Shown here in pieces: positions 996-10,653 of a DNA stretch of 64,000 nucleotides. The position numbers and the translations under genes are program-made. Every line of letters begins with the position of its first letter. Position 1 is the stretch's first letter. The stretch covers positions 10,372 to 74,371 of the forward strand of contig CAYSSY010000003.1 in assembly GCA_964434055.1 (NCBI GenBank), written 5' to 3'. The notes beneath the pieces were generated by a model. It searched no databases. It was not told the origin of the DNA and was given only the letters and a program-made list of their open reading frames with translations. This DNA comes from an uncultured Gammaproteobacteria bacterium (GTDB lineage: Bacteria > Patescibacteriota > Patescibacteriia > UBA2196 > CAYSSY01).

Positions 996-1973
996 TTATG
1001 TTAAACCAATAATTTTTTTAATTGCTGATAGATTCTTGTCGGCGATGCGACTTGCTTTGGCAGCGCCTAAACGCAAAATCTTTTCTATATATTTTTTATC
1101 TTTTAACAATTCTTCTCTTTTTTTTCTAATTGGGTTTAAAAAAGCAATAATTGATTCTGCTAAAACAGGCTTGAGTTCTGAATATTTTAATTGACCTTTT
1201 TGATAATCAACTTCAAACTTCTTAATCAGCTTTTCGTCTTGAACAAATTCTTTTAATAAATAAAGTAAATTCTGACCACCACCACTACCTTGAACGTTCC
1301 CGCTATCAGTGGTAGCACTCTTAATCTTACTTATTATTGTCTCTGGTGAATCAGACAAAGCAATATAGGATTTTGAACCCAAAGACTTAGACATTTTTTT
1401 ATTAGGATCTGACAAAGACATAATTCTCTTAGCTTGACTCAACTTAGGTTGTGGCTCGGGGAAAAATTGACCAAAACGATTGTTAAATTTGCGGGCGATT
1501 AAACGTGCCAGCTCGACATGTTGAACCTGATCCTCGCCAACCGGCACTATTCCTGCCTTATAGAGTAAAATATCAGCTGCCATCAAAACCGGATAATCAA
1601 AAAGACCCATATTGATATTGGCTTGCTGTCTTAAAGCTTTATCTTTATATTGAGTCATCCTTTCCAGCTCTGAGACCGGCGTTAAACAATTAAAAATCCA
1701 AGCCAACTCAGTGTGTTCAGAAACATGTGACTGAACAAAAATAATTGATTTCTCGGGATCAAGGCCACAAGCTAAAAAATCAACAGCAGTATCAAAAATT
1801 TGTTGCTGTTTTTTCTTGGGGTCAAAATCTTCAGTTAGTGAATGATAATCAACTACGCAAAAAATTGCTTGATAATCAGTCTGCATTTCTACCCACTGTT
1901 TAAGGGCGCCTAAATAATTACCTATATGGAGTTCGCCAGTCGGTTGAATACCGGAAAAAAGTATTGGTTTCAT
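996..1973 (-). CDS. trpS: tryptophan--tRNA ligase
   Basis: It carries the class I aaRS HIGN motif (GIQPTGELHIGNYLG) and the KMSKS motif. The 325-aa length is typical of bacterial TrpS. Confidence 0.9.
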   Translation of the reverse strand: MKPILFSGIQPTGELHIGNYLGALKQWVEMQTDYQAIFCVVDYHSLTEDFDPKKKQQQIFDTAVDFLACGLDPEKSIIFVQSHVSEHTELAWIFNCLTPVSELERMTQYKDKALRQQANINMGLFDYPVLMAADILLYKAGIVPVGEDQVQHVELARLIARKFNNRFGQFFPEPQPKLSQAKRIMSLSDPNKKMSKSLGSKSYIALSDSPETIISKIKSATTDSGNVQGSGGGQNLLYLLKEFVQDEKLIKKFEVDYQKGQLKYSELKPVLAESIIAFLNPIRKKREELLKDKKYIEKILRLGAAKASRIADKNLSAIKKIIGLT

Positions 1974-2075
1974 ATGTTTTTATTGTAACTGATTTTTGCC
2001 TGGCTGTAAACTAAAAAACGAGTTAATTTCTCGTTTTTAAAGCATCGGATGTCTTTAAAAAATATTTCAATAAAA

Positions 2076-3563
2076 TTAAATTCTAACAACTTGACCTGAA
2101 TCGGCATTGACTCTAATTTTGTCTCCATCATTAAATATCTGAGTAGCAATTTTTGTGCCAATAACACAAGGAATCTTTAGTTCTCGCGCCATGATAGCAG
2201 CGTGGCAGGTTATGCCACCTTGATCAGTCACAATCGCTGCCGCTTTTTTCATGGCCGGCACCAGCACCGGTACGGTTTTTTCAGAAACCAAAATATCACC
2301 AAATTCCATTTTAGCCATGTCTTCTAGATCATTAATTATTTTAACCTTGCCCGTCACTTGTCCACCATAGGCAGTCTGCCCAATCAAATTATTTTGAGAC
2401 AAATCAACTTGTTTTGGTTTGAAAAACTGCAGTGCCATTTTTTTTGCCTCAGCACCAGTATAAATTTTAATCTTATGATCAGTTAAAACTATAATTGAAT
2501 GCTGAATACGAGCATTAAGTTCATGAACGTTATGTTTATTATCAACCAAAGCGGCTTTCATTTCCTGAGGCAGAATATGCCTAACCTGAATCGGGGTTAA
2601 ATGTAACCGCTTGGCAATCTCATGAATTAATTTATCCATATAAAAATAAGACTGATACAAGATGTCTTTTCTTTTATTTTTCCACCACATTAATAACTGA
2701 GCATTTTTAAAAAGATAACCTAACTTTTCATCTTTATCAAGCTCGCACTCGCGCCAATATCTTCTTTGTTTAGCAGCAAAATCTTTTCGAGCAAGCTTCA
2801 TCTTTTTCAATTCTTTGAACGGATCTATTTTTCTGGAAAGTAAGTCTTTAGCTTGATCTGTAAAATATTCTTCAGTCCAAGCTTGACCCTCATAATCAAA
2901 AGGCAACCAGCAATACTTTTTAGTGTGGTCCGCAATAAGCTTCTTTGAATAACTATTATTGAGCTTCCTCTTTGATTTAATCAGCATCTCAAGAAAATCA
3001 ATTTGTTCTTGTTCACGGACAGTAGTGCGATTAAGTGTAGTCATGACAAAAAAATATTCACCAACTTGATTCTCTTTTTTCAACTTTTTTAACTTAACTA
3101 GCAATAATTTTTTTAGATATTCAGAAAAAAGATTATTCTGCCCCTCCGGAGCATTGGGCACCCAGCCATATAAATACATCGCAAAATAAAGCTTTCGGTA
3201 TTGAAGATAAAGACTCAATAGTTGATGATTGTTTTTTTTACTTAAATCGCTCCGATAAACAGAGTGGCTAAAATTAATCAATTTACAACAAGAGGCTTCT
3301 AGTTTTTTTAAACAGTGTTGAACCCATTTTTTGTCAGCCATGATTCTCTTAATGGTCTTTTTGGCAACTAAATCAAATCGCTTATTATCGACCGCCCAAC
3401 GATTTACACGTTGACGCCATTCACCAACCGCCGAACCAAAATTCAAACCAGTTATTTTTTGAAAGTGAAAACAAAGCATTTCACTCAACATTAGCAAAGG
3501 CCAAATAGAAACATTATAATTTGAGGTAGCATAACTAAATTTTTTTGGATCCAATTTTACCAT
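2076..3563 (-). CDS. PEP-utilising-enzyme mobile (phosphohistidine swivel) domain protein with an uncharacterised ~380-aa N-terminal domain
   Basis: The C-terminal ~110 aa (GQTAYGGQVTGKVKII...GDILVSEKTVPVLVPAMKKAAAIVTDQGGITCHAAIMARELKIPCVIGT) match the PEP-utilisers swivel domain, including the catalytic His in TCHAAI. No ATP-grasp (PPDK_N, GGK motif) region is recognisable. The ATG start is 3 nt downstream of the last paralog of the array. Confidence 0.7.
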   Translation of the reverse strand: MVKLDPKKFSYATSNYNVSIWPLLMLSEMLCFHFQKITGLNFGSAVGEWRQRVNRWAVDNKRFDLVAKKTIKRIMADKKWVQHCLKKLEASCCKLINFSHSVYRSDLSKKNNHQLLSLYLQYRKLYFAMYLYGWVPNAPEGQNNLFSEYLKKLLLVKLKKLKKENQVGEYFFVMTTLNRTTVREQEQIDFLEMLIKSKRKLNNSYSKKLIADHTKKYCWLPFDYEGQAWTEEYFTDQAKDLLSRKIDPFKELKKMKLARKDFAAKQRRYWRECELDKDEKLGYLFKNAQLLMWWKNKRKDILYQSYFYMDKLIHEIAKRLHLTPIQVRHILPQEMKAALVDNKHNVHELNARIQHSIIVLTDHKIKIYTGAEAKKMALQFFKPKQVDLSQNNLIGQTAYGGQVTGKVKIINDLEDMAKMEFGDILVSEKTVPVLVPAMKKAAAIVTDQGGITCHAAIMARELKIPCVIGTKIATQIFNDGDKIRVNADSGQVVRI

Positions 3564-3566
3564 AAA

Positions 3567-4427
3567 TTATTTACGTTTCATTATATAAATTGATTTGTTG
3601 TGAAAGGAATAACTAGGATCCTGGTCAATCTGAATTATCTTAAAAAATTTTTTAAATATCTTTTCATAATCACCTTGATAAAGCTGGGTAAATTTTGCAT
3701 CCAGGCCTAAGTTAAAAGATAAAGCACGATAAACTGCTTGATCTATCTTTTTACGCTTCAAGAAATTAAGCAGTGACTGTTCATACCACCCAAACTTGAT
3801 CTGCCACTTTTGTTGATCAAAATATTCTTTATTATGATTATTAATAAAGGCTTGATAAATAATTTCTTTATTGGAAAAATTCTTAAACCAGCCTGGCTTT
3901 TTTCGATAAAATTCGATCAGCGCTTTAAACTTCCCAGAGCGGATTTCCTTAGGTAAAAAAGACTTGTTCACCAAATAATAGCAACCATAAAGATAATAAC
4001 CACCATCTTTTAAATAATCATGAACATTTTTATGAAAAGATAAATAGTCTTTAAAGGCGATATTGTCCAAAGCTTCATCACTGATCACAAGATCAAAATA
4101 ATTTTTTTTAAATGGCTGGTCAAGCCAATTGCCTATTTTAAGCCGCTCTTTTGTTGGTTCGGTTTTCATAACGGTTTCCATAGCCTGAAACATTTCACGA
4201 TTAACATCAAGACAGGTGACTTGAAACTGGTGGCGGTTAAGCAGGTCGCGAAATTCCGGCGTTGAACCTAAAATTAAAGCGTGCTTATTTCTTTTCTTAC
4301 CAAATACTTTCTGCAAAAATTGGGAATATTTTTTAACTTCAAAAGGTGAAGGACGCCACGGCGGCGTCACTTTCAACCAGACGTCGGCATATTTTTTCCA
4401 ATTTTTATTAAATACCTTTTTAGACAT
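3567..4427 (-). CDS. Paralog 1 of a Rossmann / class I methyltransferase-like family (LGSTPEFRDL loop)
   Basis: The protein begins MSKKVFNKNWKKYADVWLKVTPPWRPSP, followed by ALILGSTPEFRDLL, VTCLDVNREM, FDLVISDEALDNI and LKDGGYYL. The ORF track extends to 4463, but the ATG at 4427 lies 1 nt after the paralog 2 stop and matches the MSK start of paralog 7. Confidence 0.6.
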   Translation of the reverse strand: MSKKVFNKNWKKYADVWLKVTPPWRPSPFEVKKYSQFLQKVFGKKRNKHALILGSTPEFRDLLNRHQFQVTCLDVNREMFQAMETVMKTEPTKERLKIGNWLDQPFKKNYFDLVISDEALDNIAFKDYLSFHKNVHDYLKDGGYYLYGCYYLVNKSFLPKEIRSGKFKALIEFYRKKPGWFKNFSNKEIIYQAFINNHNKEYFDQQKWQIKFGWYEQSLLNFLKRKKIDQAVYRALSFNLGLDAKFTQLYQGDYEKIFKKFFKIIQIDQDPSYSFHNKSIYIMKRK

Positions 4428-4428
4428 A

Positions 4429-5286
4429 TTATTTTTTAACTTGACCAAAGAAAAATAACGCATAATTCTTGGTGAAAAAGAAATTATCAGCTTGTTTAAC
4501 CGGCATTAGCTGAAAAAAAACTGTCATGTTTTTTTCCAATACCTCTTTCTCAACAAAAGTATGAATGATGTTGCTACGAAACCACCACATGGCGTCAAAA
4601 GCTTTTTGTGAAAGCTCACCTTTTTTATAATATAAATACAAATGATCAAACAATTTTTTCATATATAAACGACATTGCTTTCTATTGTAAATCTTAGGTT
4701 TTAGCTCACTGTTAATATAGAGTGATAAGAACATGTCAAACCAATGAGATACACCACGATCGAATTTTTGGGTTATTTTTTTGACCGAATCTGGCGCAAT
4801 CTTTGAATTAAAAACAAATTCCCTAATAATCAAATAACCATCTTTTTTTAAAAGCCGATGATTTTCTTTAAAAAAACGGCTGTGATCTTTAACACTGATA
4901 TTATTAGTGACGCCGTCGCCAATGACAACATCAAAAGAATTATCAGCTAAACCAGATTCCAACCAATCGCCAATAATTATTTTTTCTTTTTTATGACCAG
5001 CATATCTCATGAGTTTATTGCATTTCACAATCATATCAGTGCTAACGTCAAGAGTAACTAAACTACCACCTAATTCTAAAACCAAATCCCTAATTTCCGG
5101 CGTTGCCCCTAGAACTAAAGCTTTGAAATGCTTTTTATTTTTAACAGCTTTCATTATAAGCTCTCGGTAAACAGCGATAATACCTTTCGCGGCTGATGGT
5201 GCACCTGGATAATTTGAGCGCTCCATAGTTCTTTGATCAGCAATTTTATCCCGCCATTCTTTTTGTTTTCTTTTAGTTATTGACAT
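4429..5286 (-). CDS. Paralog 2 of the same family
   Basis: It carries ALVLGATPEIRDLV, VTLDVSTDM, FDVVIGDGVTNNI and LLKKDGYLIIRE. The ATG is at 5286. Confidence 0.6.
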   Translation of the reverse strand: MSITKRKQKEWRDKIADQRTMERSNYPGAPSAAKGIIAVYRELIMKAVKNKKHFKALVLGATPEIRDLVLELGGSLVTLDVSTDMIVKCNKLMRYAGHKKEKIIIGDWLESGLADNSFDVVIGDGVTNNISVKDHSRFFKENHRLLKKDGYLIIREFVFNSKIAPDSVKKITQKFDRGVSHWFDMFLSLYINSELKPKIYNRKQCRLYMKKLFDHLYLYYKKGELSQKAFDAMWWFRSNIIHTFVEKEVLEKNMTVFFQLMPVKQADNFFFTKNYALFFFGQVKK

Positions 5287-5289
5287 AAA

Positions 5290-6132
5290 TTATTTCTTTT
5301 TAGCTAAATAAAAACGAGAAAGTACTTGTTCACCCGGAAACTCGTCCAAAATTTTAAAGTATTTTTCAAAAGATGATAAATAAGTTTCTTTTTTAAAAAT
5401 TACTGCCTGTTTTTTACTATTCAGATAGATCTTGAGGCCAGCTAATTCCTTCTCGGTAATTCTGTTTTGTTTGTACCAATTATCAAGCAGAGTCAGGTGC
5501 TTCTTTAAATTATCAGAATAATCCTGATAATATATTTTTTCATCTTTTGCCCGCCACGTGCTCAAAAGAAGTAGCCAGCGTAAATCATTAACATTGATAT
5601 TTTTTTGGTGATCATAATGACTAATAATTTCAGCGAAACTTTTAAATTGAAAGGTTTTATCAAAATAGCCAGTTTGCTCAAAAAAATAGCCAGTATTTTT
5701 TAACCAATGATTAATATTTAGAAATAATTTTGGCAAGTCTACTCTGGACACCATGTTAACTGCCCAATCTGATAAAACTAAATCAAAATGATTTTGAGGA
5801 AGAGAAGCTTTTAACCAGTCGGCATTAATCAAAACTTCTTGGGCATAATTTTGTTTCATAAACCGGCGCATGGCAAGCTGCATGTTATGGTTGATGTCAA
5901 TACTGGTTAAATGCCAACCTCGGGCTAAACACAAATCACGTAATTCCGGAGTCGAACCCAACACCAAAGTTTTTATGTTTTTCTTTTTTATAAGCTGACT
6001 TAAATACTTTCGATAAATTTTTATCGAATATGGTGAAACACGCCCGGGCGGCAAAGTCACTCGCCAGTTTTTGACTAAGCTGGGAATAGAATTATCTGGA
6101 AAATATTGGCTTAAATTTTTTTTAAGCGTCAT
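5290..6132 (-). CDS. Paralog 3 of the same family
   Basis: It carries WRVTLPPGRVSP, TLVLGSTPELRDLC, TSIDINHNM, FDLVLSDWAVNMV and LKNTGYFF. The ATG start overlaps the paralog 4 stop by 11 nt. Confidence 0.6.
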   Translation of the reverse strand: MTLKKNLSQYFPDNSIPSLVKNWRVTLPPGRVSPYSIKIYRKYLSQLIKKKNIKTLVLGSTPELRDLCLARGWHLTSIDINHNMQLAMRRFMKQNYAQEVLINADWLKASLPQNHFDLVLSDWAVNMVSRVDLPKLFLNINHWLKNTGYFFEQTGYFDKTFQFKSFAEIISHYDHQKNINVNDLRWLLLLSTWRAKDEKIYYQDYSDNLKKHLTLLDNWYKQNRITEKELAGLKIYLNSKKQAVIFKKETYLSSFEKYFKILDEFPGEQVLSRFYLAKKK

Positions 6133-6976
6133 ATTTTTTCTTTAATAAATAAGCTGGCATCTGCATAGCACAAAAATGATAATCCTGACATTGCTCTAGT
6201 GGGGATATTTCAAAATCTTTGCTTAATAAATCTTCTAAATGATCTTTAAATAATAACATCATGTATTTGTGAGCATTACTATGCGCATCTTGATACCAAT
6301 TAAAAAAATCTTTTATTTCATATTTTTTGTTAATTTTCAAAAGCTCCTGGTAAACAGCATATGAATCAACTATAGTCGGCGATCTCAGACAAGGATTTAT
6401 ATAACTGGAATATTTCAAATAATTAAAAAGTTCTATGTCAGATAATTGACCCTCTCGACGGGCGGCAAAATAATTTCCAACCTGTTCTGGAGTAATCATT
6501 TTGTTGCTAGTAACCGCTACAACCTCTCGGGTTAAAAAATAACCACCAGGACTCAATATCTTACTAATTTTATTAAGTAATTTTATAAGTTCATCCAAAT
6601 TTAAAATTTGATTTAAAGAAGCATCGCCAAGAACCAAATCAAATTCACCTTCTTTAAATTTAGTGGTCAGCCAATTAGAAACCAGGTAGTGTTCGTTTTT
6701 CTCTGTTTGGTGCATTAACTTCTCCATTGCCAAAATCATGCCTTCATTCAAATCACAAACCGTAACTTCATAGCCGTGACTGGCCAGCAGATCACGAAAC
6801 TCGGGCGTGGAGCCGAGAGTTAAGGCTTTAGGATTTGCTTTTTTAGCCTTGATTGTTTTAATAACTTTCTCCCAAATTTTAAGCTGAGTTGGACATGGTC
6901 GTGAAGGCGGCTTAACTAGATCAACCCATGACCGAGCCATAATTTCCCAGGTTTCTTTGTTTTGTGCCAGAGACAT
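6122..6976 (-). CDS. Paralog 4 of the same family
   Basis: It carries WVDLVKPPSRPCP, ALTLGSTPEFRDLL, VTVCDLNEGM, FDLVLGDASLNQI and LSPGGYFLTRE. Confidence 0.6.
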   Translation of the reverse strand: MSLAQNKETWEIMARSWVDLVKPPSRPCPTQLKIWEKVIKTIKAKKANPKALTLGSTPEFRDLLASHGYEVTVCDLNEGMILAMEKLMHQTEKNEHYLVSNWLTTKFKEGEFDLVLGDASLNQILNLDELIKLLNKISKILSPGGYFLTREVVAVTSNKMITPEQVGNYFAARREGQLSDIELFNYLKYSSYINPCLRSPTIVDSYAVYQELLKINKKYEIKDFFNWYQDAHSNAHKYMMLLFKDHLEDLLSKDFEISPLEQCQDYHFCAMQMPAYLLKKKYDA

Positions 6977-6978
6977 AT

Positions 6979-7821
6979 TTATTGCTTCCTTTTTAGTTTA
7001 TAAATCCGAGACAGCTGACGGTAAACTGGGTGACAGGTGTCAGGCAGATACTTTTCAATTACAAAATATTTTTTAAGTAATTTTTCATCTTCTTGGCCAC
7101 TGTAGCCATAGGCCCAATATTTATGGCGTGGAATTATTTTTAAGGTTGCATCATTTAATTTTTTAATTTTTTGATCATTTTTCGCTAAAAATTTTAGTCT
7201 GGCAAAAAGCCGGTCGGCACTGACCTGTTTATTTTGACTGCCGCAACAAAAAACACCAAATGACCACAGATCACTGACCACTTTATCAGTCAATTTCTTT
7301 TGACTCATTTTCACAATCACCTTGTCTAAATCTAACAAGGCTTTTTTGTTAAAATAACTGAAAAAACGAGTAATAAAATAACCATCTTTTTTTAGTAAAT
7401 CATTGATATGCTGATACATTTGAAGTAAATCCCGACGGGGCACATTGCCAGTGACAAAATCACCAAAAACCAAATCGTAATAATTTTGCCTTAAGGGCGC
7501 GGTCGTCCAGCTTGCTTTAATCCAGGTTTCATTGTCTGTTTTTCTTTTCATTAAATTCGTCATGGCAATAATCATTTCCATATTAATGTCACACACCGTC
7601 ACTTTAAGCTGATGATATTTAGCAAACAAGTCTCGCAACTCTGGCGTCGAACCCAACAACAGCACTTGAACATTGTTTTTATTTTTAATTGCTTCGAACA
7701 TTAGTTTTTTAAAAGCCATAATATTGCCGAGAGAGGGCCGGGAGGGTGGATAAATTTTTAGCCAGGTTGCGGCAAAATTCCGCCAGGCTGCAGTATATTT
7801 TTTTTGAAGTGATTGAGGCAT
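6979..7821 (-). CDS. Paralog 5 of the same family
   Basis: It carries WLKIYPPSRPS, VLLLGSTPELRDLF, VTVCDINMEM, YDLVFGDFVTGNV and LLKKDGYFITR. Confidence 0.6.
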   Translation of the reverse strand: MPQSLQKKYTAAWRNFAATWLKIYPPSRPSLGNIMAFKKLMFEAIKNKNNVQVLLLGSTPELRDLFAKYHQLKVTVCDINMEMIIAMTNLMKRKTDNETWIKASWTTAPLRQNYYDLVFGDFVTGNVPRRDLLQMYQHINDLLKKDGYFITRFFSYFNKKALLDLDKVIVKMSQKKLTDKVVSDLWSFGVFCCGSQNKQVSADRLFARLKFLAKNDQKIKKLNDATLKIIPRHKYWAYGYSGQEDEKLLKKYFVIEKYLPDTCHPVYRQLSRIYKLKRKQ

Positions 7822-7822
7822 A

Positions 7823-8629
7823 CTATTTTTTCTTTAAAAAATAAACAGGGCAAAGATATGACAAGCGATGATCAGAAGCGTGTTTTTTGGCTGTGATCTG
7901 GAAATATTTTTTTAGCTTTTTTTCTTCATTAATTTCTGCGTCCTGAAACCAAGTTTTTTCAAAAGGATAATCTGCAATAAATCTTTGATACAAAATTTTA
8001 TATTTTCTTCTGTTAGAAAGTGCTTGCTTACGGATCATCTGCTTAATAATTTGTCTAACACTTCTAAAGTCAAATTGTTTTAGTTTTTTATTCCAAACCA
8101 CTGACTGCAAGGCAAATTGAAACTCGCAGATATTAGGATCTTTTTGATCGGCATAATGTGTGACAACAGCGCTTGCTTTTAAATTATGATCAAGCATTAT
8201 GTGGCGAGTTATAAATAAGCCATCTTTTTTTAATAATCTTTTTATCTCTAAGTAAAACTGGCTGCGCAAATTGAGGGGGATATTGGAAATAACAAAATCA
8301 CCCAAGATATAATCAAAATAATTTGTCTTTAAAGGTGTTTCAAGCCAGTTGGCAATAACCCATGTTTCAGCAGCGCTTTTATAAGAGTATTTCATTAGTC
8401 GCGAGGTTGAGACAAGCATCTCTAAATTCATGTCACAGGCAACCACTTCACATTTTAACTCATGTCCGAGATCACGATATCTAGGTGTGGCGCCCAAAAC
8501 CAAAACTCTAGCGCCGGTTCTCATAACTTTCTTCATTAAAGCAACTTCACCAAAGGATGGTATTATTGGTTCGCGGTAAATATGCCATTGATCAGCAATC
8601 TTTTTAAACCAGTTAATGTTTGAATTCAT
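7823..8629 (-). CDS. Paralog 6 of the same family
   Basis: It carries VLVLGATPRYRDLG, VVACDMNLEM, FDYILGDFVISNI and LLKKDGLFITR. Confidence 0.6.
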   Translation of the reverse strand: MNSNINWFKKIADQWHIYREPIIPSFGEVALMKKVMRTGARVLVLGATPRYRDLGHELKCEVVACDMNLEMLVSTSRLMKYSYKSAAETWVIANWLETPLKTNYFDYILGDFVISNIPLNLRSQFYLEIKRLLKKDGLFITRHIMLDHNLKASAVVTHYADQKDPNICEFQFALQSVVWNKKLKQFDFRSVRQIIKQMIRKQALSNRRKYKILYQRFIADYPFEKTWFQDAEINEEKKLKKYFQITAKKHASDHRLSYLCPVYFLKKK

Positions 8630-8639
8630 AAATGGTTGA

Positions 8640-8712
8640 GTTTTAGTAAGTGGTAGCCAGTAGTAAGTAACAGGGAGTAAGTAGTCGGTAAGCTATAGTC
8701 GTAAGTCATAAG
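8640..8712. repeat. Short tandem-ish array of (A)GTAAGT motifs in the paralog 7 / paralog 6 spacer
   Basis: The motif GTAAG(T) occurs at 8646, 8663, 8677, 8688 and 8701, spaced 11-17 nt apart, within the 91-nt gap between the paralog 7 stop and the paralog 6 start. Confidence 0.4.
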
Positions 8713-8720
8713 TCAGCCGA

Positions 8721-9596
8721 TTATTTGACTTGCATCAGCCAAATCGGAAAACACTGATCATTGCATCTAAAATAGCAATCAGCTAAAACTTTTTTATTCA
8801 GAATCTTAAAATATCTTTTTATTTGCTTTTCGACCTCAACTTCCCAAGAGACGCTCCAGGTTTTTTTCATCGGTTGCCACATCTGCCACATATCGTTAAG
8901 CAAAACGTTTAGTTTTTTATCGGGATGAACAAAATGATCTTTTCTAAAAAATTTGTTTAAACCTTTTATAATTAAAGACAAATCTATTAATTTCTTCCTG
9001 TAATTAAAAGTTAAGTTATGAAGATAAACTAAAAGTTCTATAGACATACAGGAACGATCGCGATAAAAGTCACTGGGGACGTCTTTAAATTTATTAAGAA
9101 CAATCTCATAATCTTCAAATGGAAAATCTTGTGGCACCACCTCAATCTTGCTGATAAAATAACCGCTGTTTTTTAATACACGGACAATCTCTTTTAAAAA
9201 TCTATCTTGCAAATTCCCAGGGACATTTGACAAAACAACATCTCCCATGGCTGCGTCAAAATAATGATCCTGAAAAGGCAAGTCGCACCAATTGCCGCGC
9301 ACCACGATCTCATTTGGATTCTTGTGCTTCATAATCGAAGTCATGGCGAGAATCATTTCCAAATTTAAATCAATAAAAGCAACTTCAAATTTTTCTTCAA
9401 AGGCTAAATCCCTAAGTTCTGGCGTGGAACCAAAAATTAAAACTCGCGGTTTTCTTTTTAAACCACGTTTAGCTGTTCTTAAGTGCCGGCGATATTCGGC
9501 AATGGCACTTTGAGAAGGCCGGCCCGGCGGCCGATAATATTTCTGCCACCTCTGAGCATAATCTTTCCATGGCTCGGCAAAAGTTTCTTTAGACAT
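8721..9596 (-). CDS. Paralog 7 of the same family; first gene of the apparent operon
   Basis: The protein begins MSKETFAEPWKDYAQRWQKYYRPPGRPS, followed by VLIFGSTPELRDLA, VAFIDLNLEM, FDAAMGDVVLSNV and LKNSGYFIS. The ORF-track start at 9632 is a TTG codon, whereas the ATG at 9596 gives an N-terminus that aligns with paralog 1. Confidence 0.55.
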   Translation of the reverse strand: MSKETFAEPWKDYAQRWQKYYRPPGRPSQSAIAEYRRHLRTAKRGLKRKPRVLIFGSTPELRDLAFEEKFEVAFIDLNLEMILAMTSIMKHKNPNEIVVRGNWCDLPFQDHYFDAAMGDVVLSNVPGNLQDRFLKEIVRVLKNSGYFISKIEVVPQDFPFEDYEIVLNKFKDVPSDFYRDRSCMSIELLVYLHNLTFNYRKKLIDLSLIIKGLNKFFRKDHFVHPDKKLNVLLNDMWQMWQPMKKTWSVSWEVEVEKQIKRYFKILNKKVLADCYFRCNDQCFPIWLMQVK

Positions 9597-9654
9597 ATAT
9601 ATAAATCTACCGCGAAATACCTTAAAAATCAATAATAAAAATTTATTTTGTCAT

Positions 9655-9745
9655 ACTGAGCCTGTCGAAGTATGAGCATGTCTGCCCACCGAATCGGATG
9701 GTCAAAGTATAAGTCTGTCACCCTTCGACAAGCTCAGGATAACAT
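9655..9745. repeat. Imperfect inverted repeat (~30-nt arms) upstream of the paralog array and downstream of the TPM-domain gene
   Basis: The arm GTCATACTGAGCCTGTCGAAGTATGAGCATGTCTG is mirrored by the reverse complement of GTCTGTCACCCTTCGACAAGCTCAGGAT, with the core CTGAGCCTGTCGAAG matching CTTCGACAAGCTCAG. Both arms are visible directly in the sequence. Confidence 0.5.
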
Positions 9746-9768
9746 TGATAAATATAGTAAATCAAAAA

Positions 9769-10653
9769 TTACCAACTGCCACTACTGCCGCCGCCACCAG
9801 ACATGCCACCGCCAAAACCACCAAAACCACCACCACCTGAGCCGCCGCCAAAATGCCCGCCACCAGCCCACCAGGGCACATGACCCTTGGCCTTGCCAGT
9901 TCGATATTGTTTAGAAACGACATAATCAAAAAGCAAACCAACTGGAATTAAAATCGCTATTGAAGTTAAACCAAAATACATAAAACCTTTAAACAAACCA
10001 AGAATCACACCAACTACGGCGCCGATGACTCCCCCGAGCCACCATGATTTACTACGCGCCAAAATAGCAGACAGCCACATAATTACCATCATGCCCAACC
10101 AGATTATACCTTCCCAAAAAGAGTCCGAATGTTTGTTACCGCTGCTTGACTGACTGGGGACTGCTTCACCTTGAGTCGCGGATATAATTTTATCAACTGC
10201 GCCGTCAATACCTTGATAAAAATTATCTGCCTGAAAAGCCGGTTTCATGATTTGATTAAAAATCCAACTGGCCTGAGCATCGGTCAAAGCGCCTTCTAAA
10301 CCATAGCCAACCTCAATTCTCATTTTCCGGTCATCTTTGGCAATTAAAATCATCACGCCATTATCGCTACCTTTCTTACCAACACCCCATTCTTGAAAAA
10401 GATTTTCTGCAAAATTCTCAATAGTATCGCCTTGCAAATCTTTGATAATAATGACGGTTATTTCATGACTTGATTGTTTTTCAAATTCACCGAGTTTGTT
10501 CTCTAATAATTGCTTCTGGTCAGTGCTTAAAACACCAGCATAATCATTAACAAAGCCGGTAGGCGTGCCGGGATTATAATATGCCCCAGCCGTGCTGCCT
10601 AAAAACAGCACGGCTGAAACAATAAGAACAATTTTTAACAAAAATAGTTTCAT
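9769..10653 (-). CDS. TPM-domain (TLP18.3/Psb32/MOLO-1 family) membrane protein with a Gly-rich C-terminal tail
   Basis: It has a signal peptide and then YVNDYAGVLS...EITVIIIKDLQGDTIENFAENLFQEWGVGKKGSDNGVMILI, the TPM phosphatase-fold signature. A TM segment and a poly-Gly tail follow. It is paired with lemA. Confidence 0.75.
   Translation of the reverse strand: MKLFLLKIVLIVSAVLFLGSTAGAYYNPGTPTGFVNDYAGVLSTDQKQLLENKLGEFEKQSSHEITVIIIKDLQGDTIENFAENLFQEWGVGKKGSDNGVMILIAKDDRKMRIEVGYGLEGALTDAQASWIFNQIMKPAFQADNFYQGIDGAVDKIISATQGEAVPSQSSSGNKHSDSFWEGIIWLGMMVIMWLSAILARSKSWWLGGVIGAVVGVILGLFKGFMYFGLTSIAILIPVGLLFDYVVSKQYRTGKAKGHVPWWAGGGHFGGGSGGGGFGGFGGGMSGGGGSSGSW

Follow-up and report, generated by a model that had tools for sequence, protein, structure and literature searches.

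The phosphoethanolamine N-methyltransferases (PMTs) of Plasmodium, plants and nematodes and the protein PH0226 (1ve3) are the closest described relatives of a protein family that is encoded by seven consecutive genes on the minus strand, at positions 3567-9596, of the 64,000-nucleotide stretch of DNA analysed here (the window; contig CAYSSY010000003.1 of assembly GCA_964434055.1). PMTs and PH0226 have the same Rossmann fold as this family and give its best matches both in sequence and in structure. They resemble it in the acidic residue at the end of beta2, Asp or Asn after beta3, FD on beta4 and LLKxGG on beta5, and in the N-terminal helical segment and the C-terminal cap around the active site. 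Unlike them, the family has the motif G-(S/A)-T-P-E-x-R-D, a hydrophobic residue in place of the motif I acid, an invariant Trp after beta3 and a W...PPxRPS segment. The source of the window looks like a bacterium with a small genome, of the Patescibacteria type. Comparison of sequences and predicted structures suggests that the seven genes belong to an old subfamily of class I S-adenosylmethionine (SAM)-dependent transferases, the members of which are probably, though not with high confidence, small-molecule methyltransferases.

Other described proteins share single features with the family. BioC (GCGPG) and RlmE/FtsJ (GAAPG) have Pro at the fourth position of the loop, as the family does, and RlmE likewise lacks the second Gly. 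However, both retain the third Gly and the motif I Asp, neither has Thr at the second-Gly position or Glu at the third, and their similarity to the family is weak. AzeJ/VioH, MccD, nicotianamine synthase/CntL and SpeE have the class I fold with a non-standard Gly loop and produce methylthioadenosine (MTA) as a by-product. The partners of MccD are a pyridoxal phosphate (PLP) enzyme and an MTA-cleaving enzyme, and Asp158 of SpeE lies opposite the Asp that follows beta4 in the family. MmtN of group II is like the family in its size of ~300 residues, its methyltransferase fold and cap domain, its restriction to the same episymbiotic lineages and its methionine-related gene neighbourhoods.

A variant motif I as the signature of a family

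All seven proteins contain (L/F)-G-(S/A)-T-P-(E/R)-x-R-D-L at the position at which class I methyltransferases have hh(D/E)hGxGxG. Paralog 1, which is the first in the operon (8721-9596; 291 residues from the ATG at 9596), has the loop FGSTPELRDL (nt 9405-9434) and the N-terminal segment PPGRPS. It is followed by paralog 2 (7823-8629; 268 residues; LGATPRYRDL, nt 8468-8497; EPIIPS), in which the Arg of the segment is lost and the Glu of the loop is replaced by Arg, and by paralog 3 (6979-7821; 280 residues; LGSTPELRDL, nt 7627-7656; PPSRPS), the structure of which was modelled. The 3' end of paralog 4 (6122-6976; 284 residues; LGSTPEFRDL, nt 6788-6817; PPSRPC) overlaps the next gene, paralog 5 (5290-6132; 280 residues; LGSTPELRDL, nt 5932-5961; PPGRVS), by 11 nt. 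The last two are paralog 6 (4429-5286; 285 residues; LGATPEIRDL, nt 5083-5112; YPGAPS, without Arg) and paralog 7 (3567-4427; 286 residues from the ATG at 4427; LGSTPEFRDL, nt 4242-4271; PPWRPS). Five copies have the loop GSTPE, and GATPE and GATPR are present in one copy each, which is a small correction to the original prediction. The alignment of the seven copies confirms the prediction that the loop is non-canonical and lies in the same register in every copy.

The other copies are 24-30% identical to the first one, and only 19 columns of the alignment are invariant. Seven of these columns (L, G, T, P, R, D and L) fall within one stretch of 12 residues, for which the hypergeometric P is ~9e-7 when this stretch is considered alone and ~2e-4 when it is corrected for all stretches. 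The remaining methyltransferase motifs, which had been reported as retained, are indeed present in the seven copies: an invariant Asp ends beta2, (F/Y)D...(G/S)D lies on and after beta4, and L..(K)..G(Y/L) lies at beta5. Thus, of the features that define class I SAM methyltransferases, the fold and motifs post-I, II and III are found, and motif I hh(D/E)hGxGxG is not. All seven copies match Pfam Methyltransf_11 (PF08241) with 27.9-43.9 bits, as compared with a gathering cut-off of 21.2, in partial alignments that do not include the loop. The alignments of all copies with Methyltransf_11 and Methyltransf_25 begin at profile position 10-19. The GxGxG of these two models presumably sits just before this position, so that the loop is left unmatched because the alignments begin just past it. 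The Pfam matches of the copies are generic only (Methyltransf_11, 25, 12 and 31).

A word-indexed search for homologues gives only 26 clusters, which would have implied that the family is rare. An exhaustive profile search gives 3511 proteins at E<=1e-3, 1286 at E<=1e-10 and 481 at E<=1e-30, each of which represents one cluster at 50% identity. The sequence G(S/A/C)T(P/I/V/A)(E/R/D/Q) is present in 140 of 174 family proteins, mostly as GATPE (63) or GSTPE (60); the other 34 mostly retain G-x-T-P and differ in the residue that follows. Conservation was determined for 435 non-redundant members, which consist of profile-search proteins and of family open reading frames (ORFs) from 143 related loci. 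Because the strict motif served as the seed of the searches for these loci, the seeded copies are biased; their array neighbours and the profile-search hits are not. Within the loop, Gly is present at column 54 in 431 of 431 sequences, Thr at column 56 in 430 of 431, Pro at column 57 in 403, Glu at column 58 in 379 and Arg at column 60 in 425. Outside it, an acidic residue (D/E) ends beta2 at column 75 (432 of 432), column 101 after beta3 is mostly Asn (197), Asp (179) or Ser (40), Trp is present at column 102 (433 of 433), and column 118 after beta4 is Asp (391), His (25) or Glu (16), which together account for 432 of 432. FD at columns 112-113, L140 and G144 are further motif positions of the family. 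These results indicate that the variant loop is a fixed signature of the family under strong purifying selection. They agree with the earlier claim, made from the seven copies, that the loop is not a product of decay. Decay into pseudogenes is also ruled out by the observations that all seven ORFs are intact and that each copy has a nearer relative in another genome.

The loop is found in no Pfam, NCBIfam or PDB entry, and no NCBIfam model comes near its cut-off. The closest PDB chains in profile searches are PMT-2 (3.8e-11) and PH0226 (5.5e-11). A known SAM-binding family with this loop, which had been named as the finding that would make the loop ordinary, was therefore not encountered among matches that comprise generic Pfam models only, no LCM model and PDB entries from E 4e-11 upwards. 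Searches of the literature for the motif strings and for methyltransferase arrays of Candidate Phyla Radiation (CPR) bacteria give no description of the family, and a full-text search for GSTPE or GATPE together with methyltransferase gives nothing relevant. A 2026 preprint on CPR methyltransferases concerns, in the part of it that was available, methyltransferases of the resistance and restriction-modification types. Members of the family are currently annotated only as "class I SAM-dependent methyltransferase". The family is thus large, occurs in episymbiotic bacteria and archaea, and has neither a curated model nor an assigned function. With 481 cluster representatives at E<=1e-30, it merits a model of its own whichever reaction it catalyses.

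The structure of paralog 3 was predicted with AlphaFold2 (AF2) from an alignment of 30 sequences, with a predicted local distance difference test score (pLDDT) of 89.9 and a predicted template-modelling score of 0.88. The model contains beta1 (51-56), alphaA (60-67), beta2 (72-78), beta3 (98-102) and beta4 (115-121), and its predicted fold is that of a plain class I SAM methyltransferase with alternating beta and alpha elements of the Rossmann-like type. In the model, Gly57-Ser58 form the turn, Thr59 caps alphaA, and Pro60-Glu61 are the first residues of this helix. The best matches in the PDB by Foldseek are SAM- or SAH (S-adenosylhomocysteine)-bound phosphoethanolamine N-methyltransferases, PH0226, MM_2633, Coq5 and CysG(N-16), with E values from 6e-11 and a probability of 1.0 for more than 1300 PDB chains. 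The template-modelling (TM) scores are ~0.5-0.6, because the C-terminal cap is unmatched.

The family profile was also compared with E. coli proteins by hhalign. UbiE is matched with a probability of 94.95%, with the loop gapped, and SpeE with 94.9%, with GGGDGAMLRE opposite GSTP--ELRD. BioC (68.9%) and RlmE (45.7%) are matched less well, but their loops, GCGPG and GAAPG respectively, align with GSTPE without a gap. BioC and RlmE are proven SAM methyltransferases. Pro is therefore ordinary at its position, and enzymes proven to use SAM can have another residue in place of the second Gly. AzeJ, a SAM enzyme with the methyltransferase fold, the structure of which has been solved with SAH, has GxxxG instead of GxGxG (PMC11794875), which is a precedent for the binding of SAM by a protein that lacks the canonical loop. 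Peculiar to the family are the Thr, the Glu, the hydrophobic residue at the position of the motif I acid, and the invariant Arg-Asp that follows after one helical turn.

The segment W..(6)..W....PPxRPS ahead of the fold is conserved in an alignment of 137 sequences (W11 in 111, W18 in 108, P24 in 123, P27 in 123 and S28 in 98), in which column 26 is Arg in 98 and Lys in 11 more. The PP.RPS segment, to which the original prediction had drawn attention, is therefore a real conserved feature, but it is intact in only four of the seven copies of the window, being PPGRVS, YPGAPS and EPIIPS in the others. It covaries with the loop: sequences that are basic in column 26 tend to be acidic in column 58, with an odds ratio of 10.7 (counts 296/17/52/32), and with an odds ratio of 6.1 (158/12/39/18; p 1e-5) when one representative is taken per cluster at <45% identity. 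This pair ranks 54 of 36,856 by mutual information with average product correction, by which Glu58 pairs best with Trp18 and Arg26, and Arg26 with Trp18 and Glu58. The copy of the window that lacks Arg in EPIIPS (7823-8629) is the copy with the GATPR loop. We infer from this covariation that the N-terminal Arg and Trp probably pack on the loop Glu as a lid over the amino-acid end of the cofactor. Apart from this pair, the top covariation partner of the Asp, His or Glu after beta4 (column 118; Asp121 of the 6979-7821 protein) is an Arg or Lys after beta5 in G-Y-F-I-T-R (column 149; Arg152). Asp121 and Arg152 may form an active-site pair.

Arrays of the family and their partner genes

Related loci are found in representative genomes and in metagenomes. 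In the former they occur in Patescibacteria (Moranii-, Magasanik-, Falkow-, Staskawicz-, Dojka- and Saccharibacteria), in DPANN archaea (Woese-, Aenigm-, Micr- and Nanoarchaeia) and in free-living bacteria such as Nitrospirales, Binatia, Vicinamibacterales, Rhodopseudomonas telluris and Enhygromyxa salina. When loci that share copies with at least 90% identity are merged, 103 loci remain, of which 39 are arrays of 2-10 copies and 64 contain a single copy. Each copy of the window is 32-43% identical to a copy in another genome, as compared with 25-32% to its neighbours, and most copies in the other arrays examined are likewise nearer to a relative in another genome than to their neighbours. This result rules out recent amplification within one lineage. 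The mean identity among the seven copies of the window is 34% in the N-terminal cofactor domain and 16% in the C-terminal domain. The arrays are therefore composed of long-differentiated enzymes with diversified caps. Despite the very small size of the genomes of CPR and DPANN organisms, as many as ten differentiated copies stand side by side in them, and the same two partner genes accompany the copies in both domains of life. Retention on such a scale in very small genomes implies that the function is important.

Family domains are also fused to one another. The protein P0027 (1704 residues) contains six of them in one polypeptide, suggesting that family copies can act together physically, and P0029 and P0032 contain two. 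The loops of domains 1-3 of P0027 are GLAPELRE, GFNSEIRD and GVDPVLRD, so that even the Thr can be lost. The longest genome-derived arrays, with 10 copies (L001/L010, CAZAGY010000004.1) and 8 copies (L011, CAZCKV010000006.1), come from metagenome-assembled genomes labelled "uncultured Gammaproteobacteria". This label may be an error of binning or classification, because all other arrays are from Patescibacteria or DPANN. A NIF3/DUF34-like protein of ~320-345 residues is encoded in or beside the arrays in 5 of the 39 array groups (L001 7223-8182, L011 12181-13131, L014 1492-2526, L088 and L096). In L001, L011 and L014 a conserved gene for a protein of ~310 residues comes next (with a weak radical-SAM match in L001), and the L001 array is additionally trailed by a Memo-AMMECR1 fusion.

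When all flanking ORFs are clustered, only two families recur widely, a PLP protein and a phosphoenolpyruvate (PEP)-utilizers protein. MetK, AhcY, SpeD or an ATP-grasp protein is not widely recurrent among the clustered flanking ORFs. The PLP protein is a divergent member of the PLP-dependent enzymes of Cys/Met metabolism, for which the models of the cystathionine-gamma-synthase family are nearest but far below their cut-offs. Its gene is present in 20 of the 39 arrays and in 1 of the 64 single-copy loci, and the PEP-utilizers gene, which encodes a protein of ~500 residues with a C-terminal swivel domain, is present in 14 of the 39 arrays, including that of the window, and in 3 of the 64 single-copy loci. 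Since many contigs are truncated, these are minimum counts. The typical order is the PLP gene, the family copies and the PEP-utilizers gene (L036, L050, L086 and L087). PADLOC gives no match for either partner protein, and a role of the family in anti-phage defence was discarded, since the only match is one of ~90 residues between the generic methyltransferase core and mad2.

In the window, the PEP-utilizers partner is encoded at 2076-3563 on the minus strand, 3 nt downstream of paralog 7. It consists of 495 residues and has a C-terminal phosphohistidine swivel domain. Over its whole length it is structurally nearest to the antibiotic-modifying enzyme rifampin phosphotransferase (RPH), and its AF2 model (pLDDT 93.9) matches RPH-Lm over ~470-570 columns with an E value of 1e-11 and a TM-score of 0.50-0.55. 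A substrate-binding domain and a phosphohistidine swivel domain are common to both proteins. Unlike RPH, the partner has no ATP-grasp domain, although some of its homologues carry PF01326 as a fusion, and no gene of the window was recognised as an ATP-grasp partner. In CPR and DPANN the PEP-utilizers family is very large and numbers at least 1721 relatives at E<=1e-10. PPDK_N, HAD or UDP-GlcNAc 2-epimerase domains are joined to some of its members, and the partner is itself present in 3-6 copies in L028, L046, L048 and L099.

The PLP gene is absent from the window. However, the metagenome contig L065, which is 98.5% identical to positions 4930-9733 of the window, contains an extra segment of 1.5 kb (372-1888) exactly between the gene for the TPM-domain protein and the first paralog. 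This segment carries a gene (640-1773) for a cystathionine-gamma-synthase-like PLP protein of 378 residues and is bounded by direct copies of ATGTCAYCCTGAGCYTG...TCGAAGGRTG. The complete cassette thus exists in a nearly identical strain, with the PLP gene at the upstream edge of the array. The intergenic region upstream of the array in the window, at 9653-9740, contains two inverted copies of ATCCTGAGCTTGTCGAAGGRTG, of which that at 9719-9740 on the minus strand is a single hybrid repeat copy and that at 9653-9674 on the plus strand is a degenerate inverted copy. To judge from these sequences, the PLP gene has apparently been deleted from the window by recombination between the repeats.

Possible reactions of the family

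It is possible to place SAM in the predicted structure in the following way. Thr-Pro-Glu would form the N-cap and the first turn of alphaA and would thereby replace the Gly-x-Gly turn after the Gly of beta1, with the invariant Arg-Asp lying one turn further along the helix. The adenosine end of SAM would be bound as in other enzymes of this fold, its ribose by the Asp or Glu that ends beta2, and its adenine by the Asp or Asn and the invariant Trp after beta3. The amino-acid end of SAM would lie under the lid that is formed by the loop Glu and by the Arg and Trp of W...PPxRPS. The acceptor would be positioned or deprotonated by the invariant residue that directly follows beta4, which is Asp and only rarely His or Glu. 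The seven copies, with a conserved N-terminal cofactor domain and a far more divergent C-terminal cap, would work within the conserved cassette, which comprises the PLP enzyme, a variable number of family copies and the RPH-like phosphocarrier protein. The divergence of the caps suggests that the copies act on different substrates or at successive positions of one substrate.

The substrates are probably small molecules, because family members are fused to enolase-superfamily and riboflavin kinase domains, riboflavin genes lie downstream of arrays, and the partner is RPH-like. P0160 (779 residues) combines a family domain with an enolase-superfamily (MR_MLE_N/C) domain, a hint that the substrate may be a small molecule that resembles an amino acid or is another carboxylate. 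In P0131 (394 residues) a family member is fused to a riboflavin kinase domain. At three loci of the Moranbacteria type (L013 15417-16850, L016 and L022 13937-15340), the arrays are immediately followed by genes for riboflavin kinase, riboflavin synthase and lumazine synthase.

Three other explanations of the variant loop need to be weighed against SAM-dependent methyl transfer. According to one of them, the loop is the normal signature of a characterised family with an assigned function, and in fact LG(S/A)TPExR superficially resembles LGAGxDTR of leucine carboxyl methyltransferase (LCMT)-like proteins, PMTs are the best matches in the PDB, and MmtN group II occurs in CPR bacteria and Woesearchaeota (PMC9135737). 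However, MmtN groups I-III all keep GxGxG (PMC9135737), and neither the 60 listed PDB sequence matches nor the 50 listed Foldseek matches include any of the MmtN structures 7VVV, 7VVW and 7VVX. No copy matches Pfam LCM at E<=1, and the second Gly of the LCMT-like loop is Thr in the family. PMTs are only 13-18% identical to it, and the segment SRDCIQHI of PMT-2 lies opposite gDvvlnnI, so that the column of the His, which we take to be the catalytic His in the SRD..QH segment after beta4 of PMTs, is occupied by Asn, Gln, Met or Val. Together with the NCBIfam models, which score far below their cut-offs, this makes membership of a characterised family highly improbable. The original prediction itself suggested an altered cofactor or a binding-only function, such that the proteins would be pseudoenzymes or would bind another nucleotide or a SAM analogue. 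In agreement with this, the last two Gly of GxGxG and the motif I acid are replaced, the Pfam alignments pass over the loop, three of the six domains of P0027 have further degenerate loops (GLAPE, GFNSE and GVDPV), so that some domains are perhaps non-catalytic, and the partner protein handles phosphoryl groups. However, the adenine, ribose and post-beta4 positions, Thr56 and Trp102 are essentially invariant over the 435 members, which exceeds the needs of a scaffold. The model superposes on SAM-bound methyltransferases, GSTPE aligns with the loops of proven SAM enzymes, and such enzymes tolerate similar substitutions, as seen for BioC and RlmE by hhalign and for AzeJ (PMC11794875). In addition, the family genes share operons with enzymes, and no evidence points to any specific alternative ligand. 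A changed or abolished use of the cofactor is therefore unlikely, and the more probable alternatives differ in the group of SAM that is transferred, rather than in the identity of the cofactor.

According to the remaining explanation, the loop and the W...PPxRPS lid would define an unrecognised class of proteins with the methyltransferase fold, in which the loop and the lid hold the methionine end of SAM such that its gamma-carbon is attacked. SAM would then serve as an aminocarboxypropyl or aminopropyl donor or would be cleaved intramolecularly, MTA would be released, and the PLP enzyme would use the gamma-substituted 2-aminobutyrate in a new three-component pathway. Aminocarboxypropyl transfer gives MTA as a by-product, whereas methyl transfer gives SAH, and a gene that scores above the TIGR01694 cut-off for S-methyl-5'-thioadenosine phosphorylase (MTAP) lies between family copies and on the same strand in two array lineages (L009 5293-6135 and L041 12627-13436; also L070, L073, L084 and L137). 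However, these are only 2 of the 39 array groups, they possibly reflect one ancestral event, and MTAP is also a general enzyme of purine salvage. The cystathionine-gamma-synthase-like PLP gene of 20 of the 39 arrays belongs to a family that handles gamma-substituted 2-aminobutyrates, but it fits a methionine/homocysteine cycle equally well. MccD, which has the methyltransferase fold, has the PLP decarboxylase MccE as its partner, and an MTA nucleosidase stimulates it (PMC10491745); AzeJ illustrates that SAM lyases with this fold have loops other than GxGxG. As in SpeE, the acid of motif I is hydrophobic in the family, and in the hhalign alignment LRD/LRE and the post-beta4 Asp are aligned with SpeE. 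Nevertheless, spermidine synthase was rejected as an identity of the family, since hhalign covers the core only (residues 49-155), GGGDG lies opposite GSTP with a gap of two residues, only the first Asp after beta4 is common to both, the N-terminal beta-hairpin domain of spermidine synthases is absent, and no copy of the window matches Spermine_synth. The likeness to SpeE is generic, because its score equals that of the methyltransferase UbiE. FY, PFNxxGN and RxxYYxxC of the azetidine-2-carboxylate (AZE) synthases AzeJ and VioH (PMC11794875) are absent from the 30-sequence alignment and its consensus, and the signatures of spermidine and nicotianamine synthases, including GGGDG and DxxDP, are absent as well. 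A further point in favour of the release of MTA is that an aldolase of the ADH-synthase/GriI type adjoins single-copy members of free-living bacteria at 10 of the 64 loci. Such aldolases presumably use aspartate semialdehyde. Since the fold strongly favours methyl transfer beforehand, and the nearest relatives in sequence and structure are methyltransferases, the release of MTA by a new class of enzymes is possible but doubtful.

Methyl transfer is favoured, and is somewhat more probable than not, for the same two reasons, namely the prior for the fold and the nature of the nearest relatives. Several points weigh against it or limit it. The acid of hh(D/E)hG is replaced by Ile, Val or Leu, column 52 being Ile in 74, Val in 47 and Leu in 13 sequences across the family. 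SpeE scores like UbiE, LRD lies opposite LRE, and the Asp after beta4 lies opposite Asp158 of SpeE, so that sequence similarity cannot tell whether a methyl, an aminopropyl or an aminocarboxypropyl group is transferred. The MTAP gene lies inside two array lineages. The contacts of Thr, Glu and Arg with SAM and the contact between Arg26 and Glu58 are predicted from sequence, and the covariation figures for columns 18, 26 and 58 ignore phylogeny. Whichever group is transferred, the family amounts to an experiment of nature with that element of the methyltransferase fold which is otherwise conserved best: Gly-x-Gly is replaced by a Thr-Pro-Glu cap, and the cap is coupled to an Arg/Trp lid. If the enzymes methylate, the rules by which SAM sites are recognised will have to be widened; if they release MTA, they represent a new class of reaction and provide a sequence signature by which it can be found.

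The single-copy gene of free-living bacteria lies in a conserved operon (L005, L007, L024, L031, L044, L045, L051, L052, L059, L060 and L064), which consists of genes for a DhnA-type aldolase similar to ADH synthase/GriI, the family member, a short-chain dehydrogenase (SDR), a PNPOx-like protein with a flavin-binding fold, and two related proteins of 280-350 residues without a Pfam match.

Gene layout in the window

The seven intact ORFs extend over 3567-4463, 4429-5286, 5290-6132, 6122-6976, 6979-7821, 7823-8629 and 8721-9632 on the minus strand when the longest frames are taken. In this case, the outer two start at ATG 4463 (paralog 7) and TTG 9632 (paralog 1). These starts probably overshoot, the real ones being the internal ATGs at 4427 and 9596. 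The start at 4427 is preferred because the database protein P0001 begins there and an overlap of 35 nt is removed, and 9596 is the end coordinate given in the original prediction. With these starts, the spacing between the paralogs is -11 to +3 nt, except for one gap of 91 nt, and the distance to the next gene is 3 nt, so that the seven paralogs form a tightly packed, operon-like block. A scan of positions 1800-10000 for sigma-70 promoters and terminators gives nothing above the expectation from shuffled sequences, and its results were not used. The genes that flank the block in the window are housekeeping genes, which encode tryptophanyl-tRNA synthetase (TrpRS), a hibernation factor, LemA, the TPM-domain protein, RNase J and UvrC. 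The ORF at 9672-9914 on the plus strand overlaps the gene for the TPM-domain protein and looks spurious.

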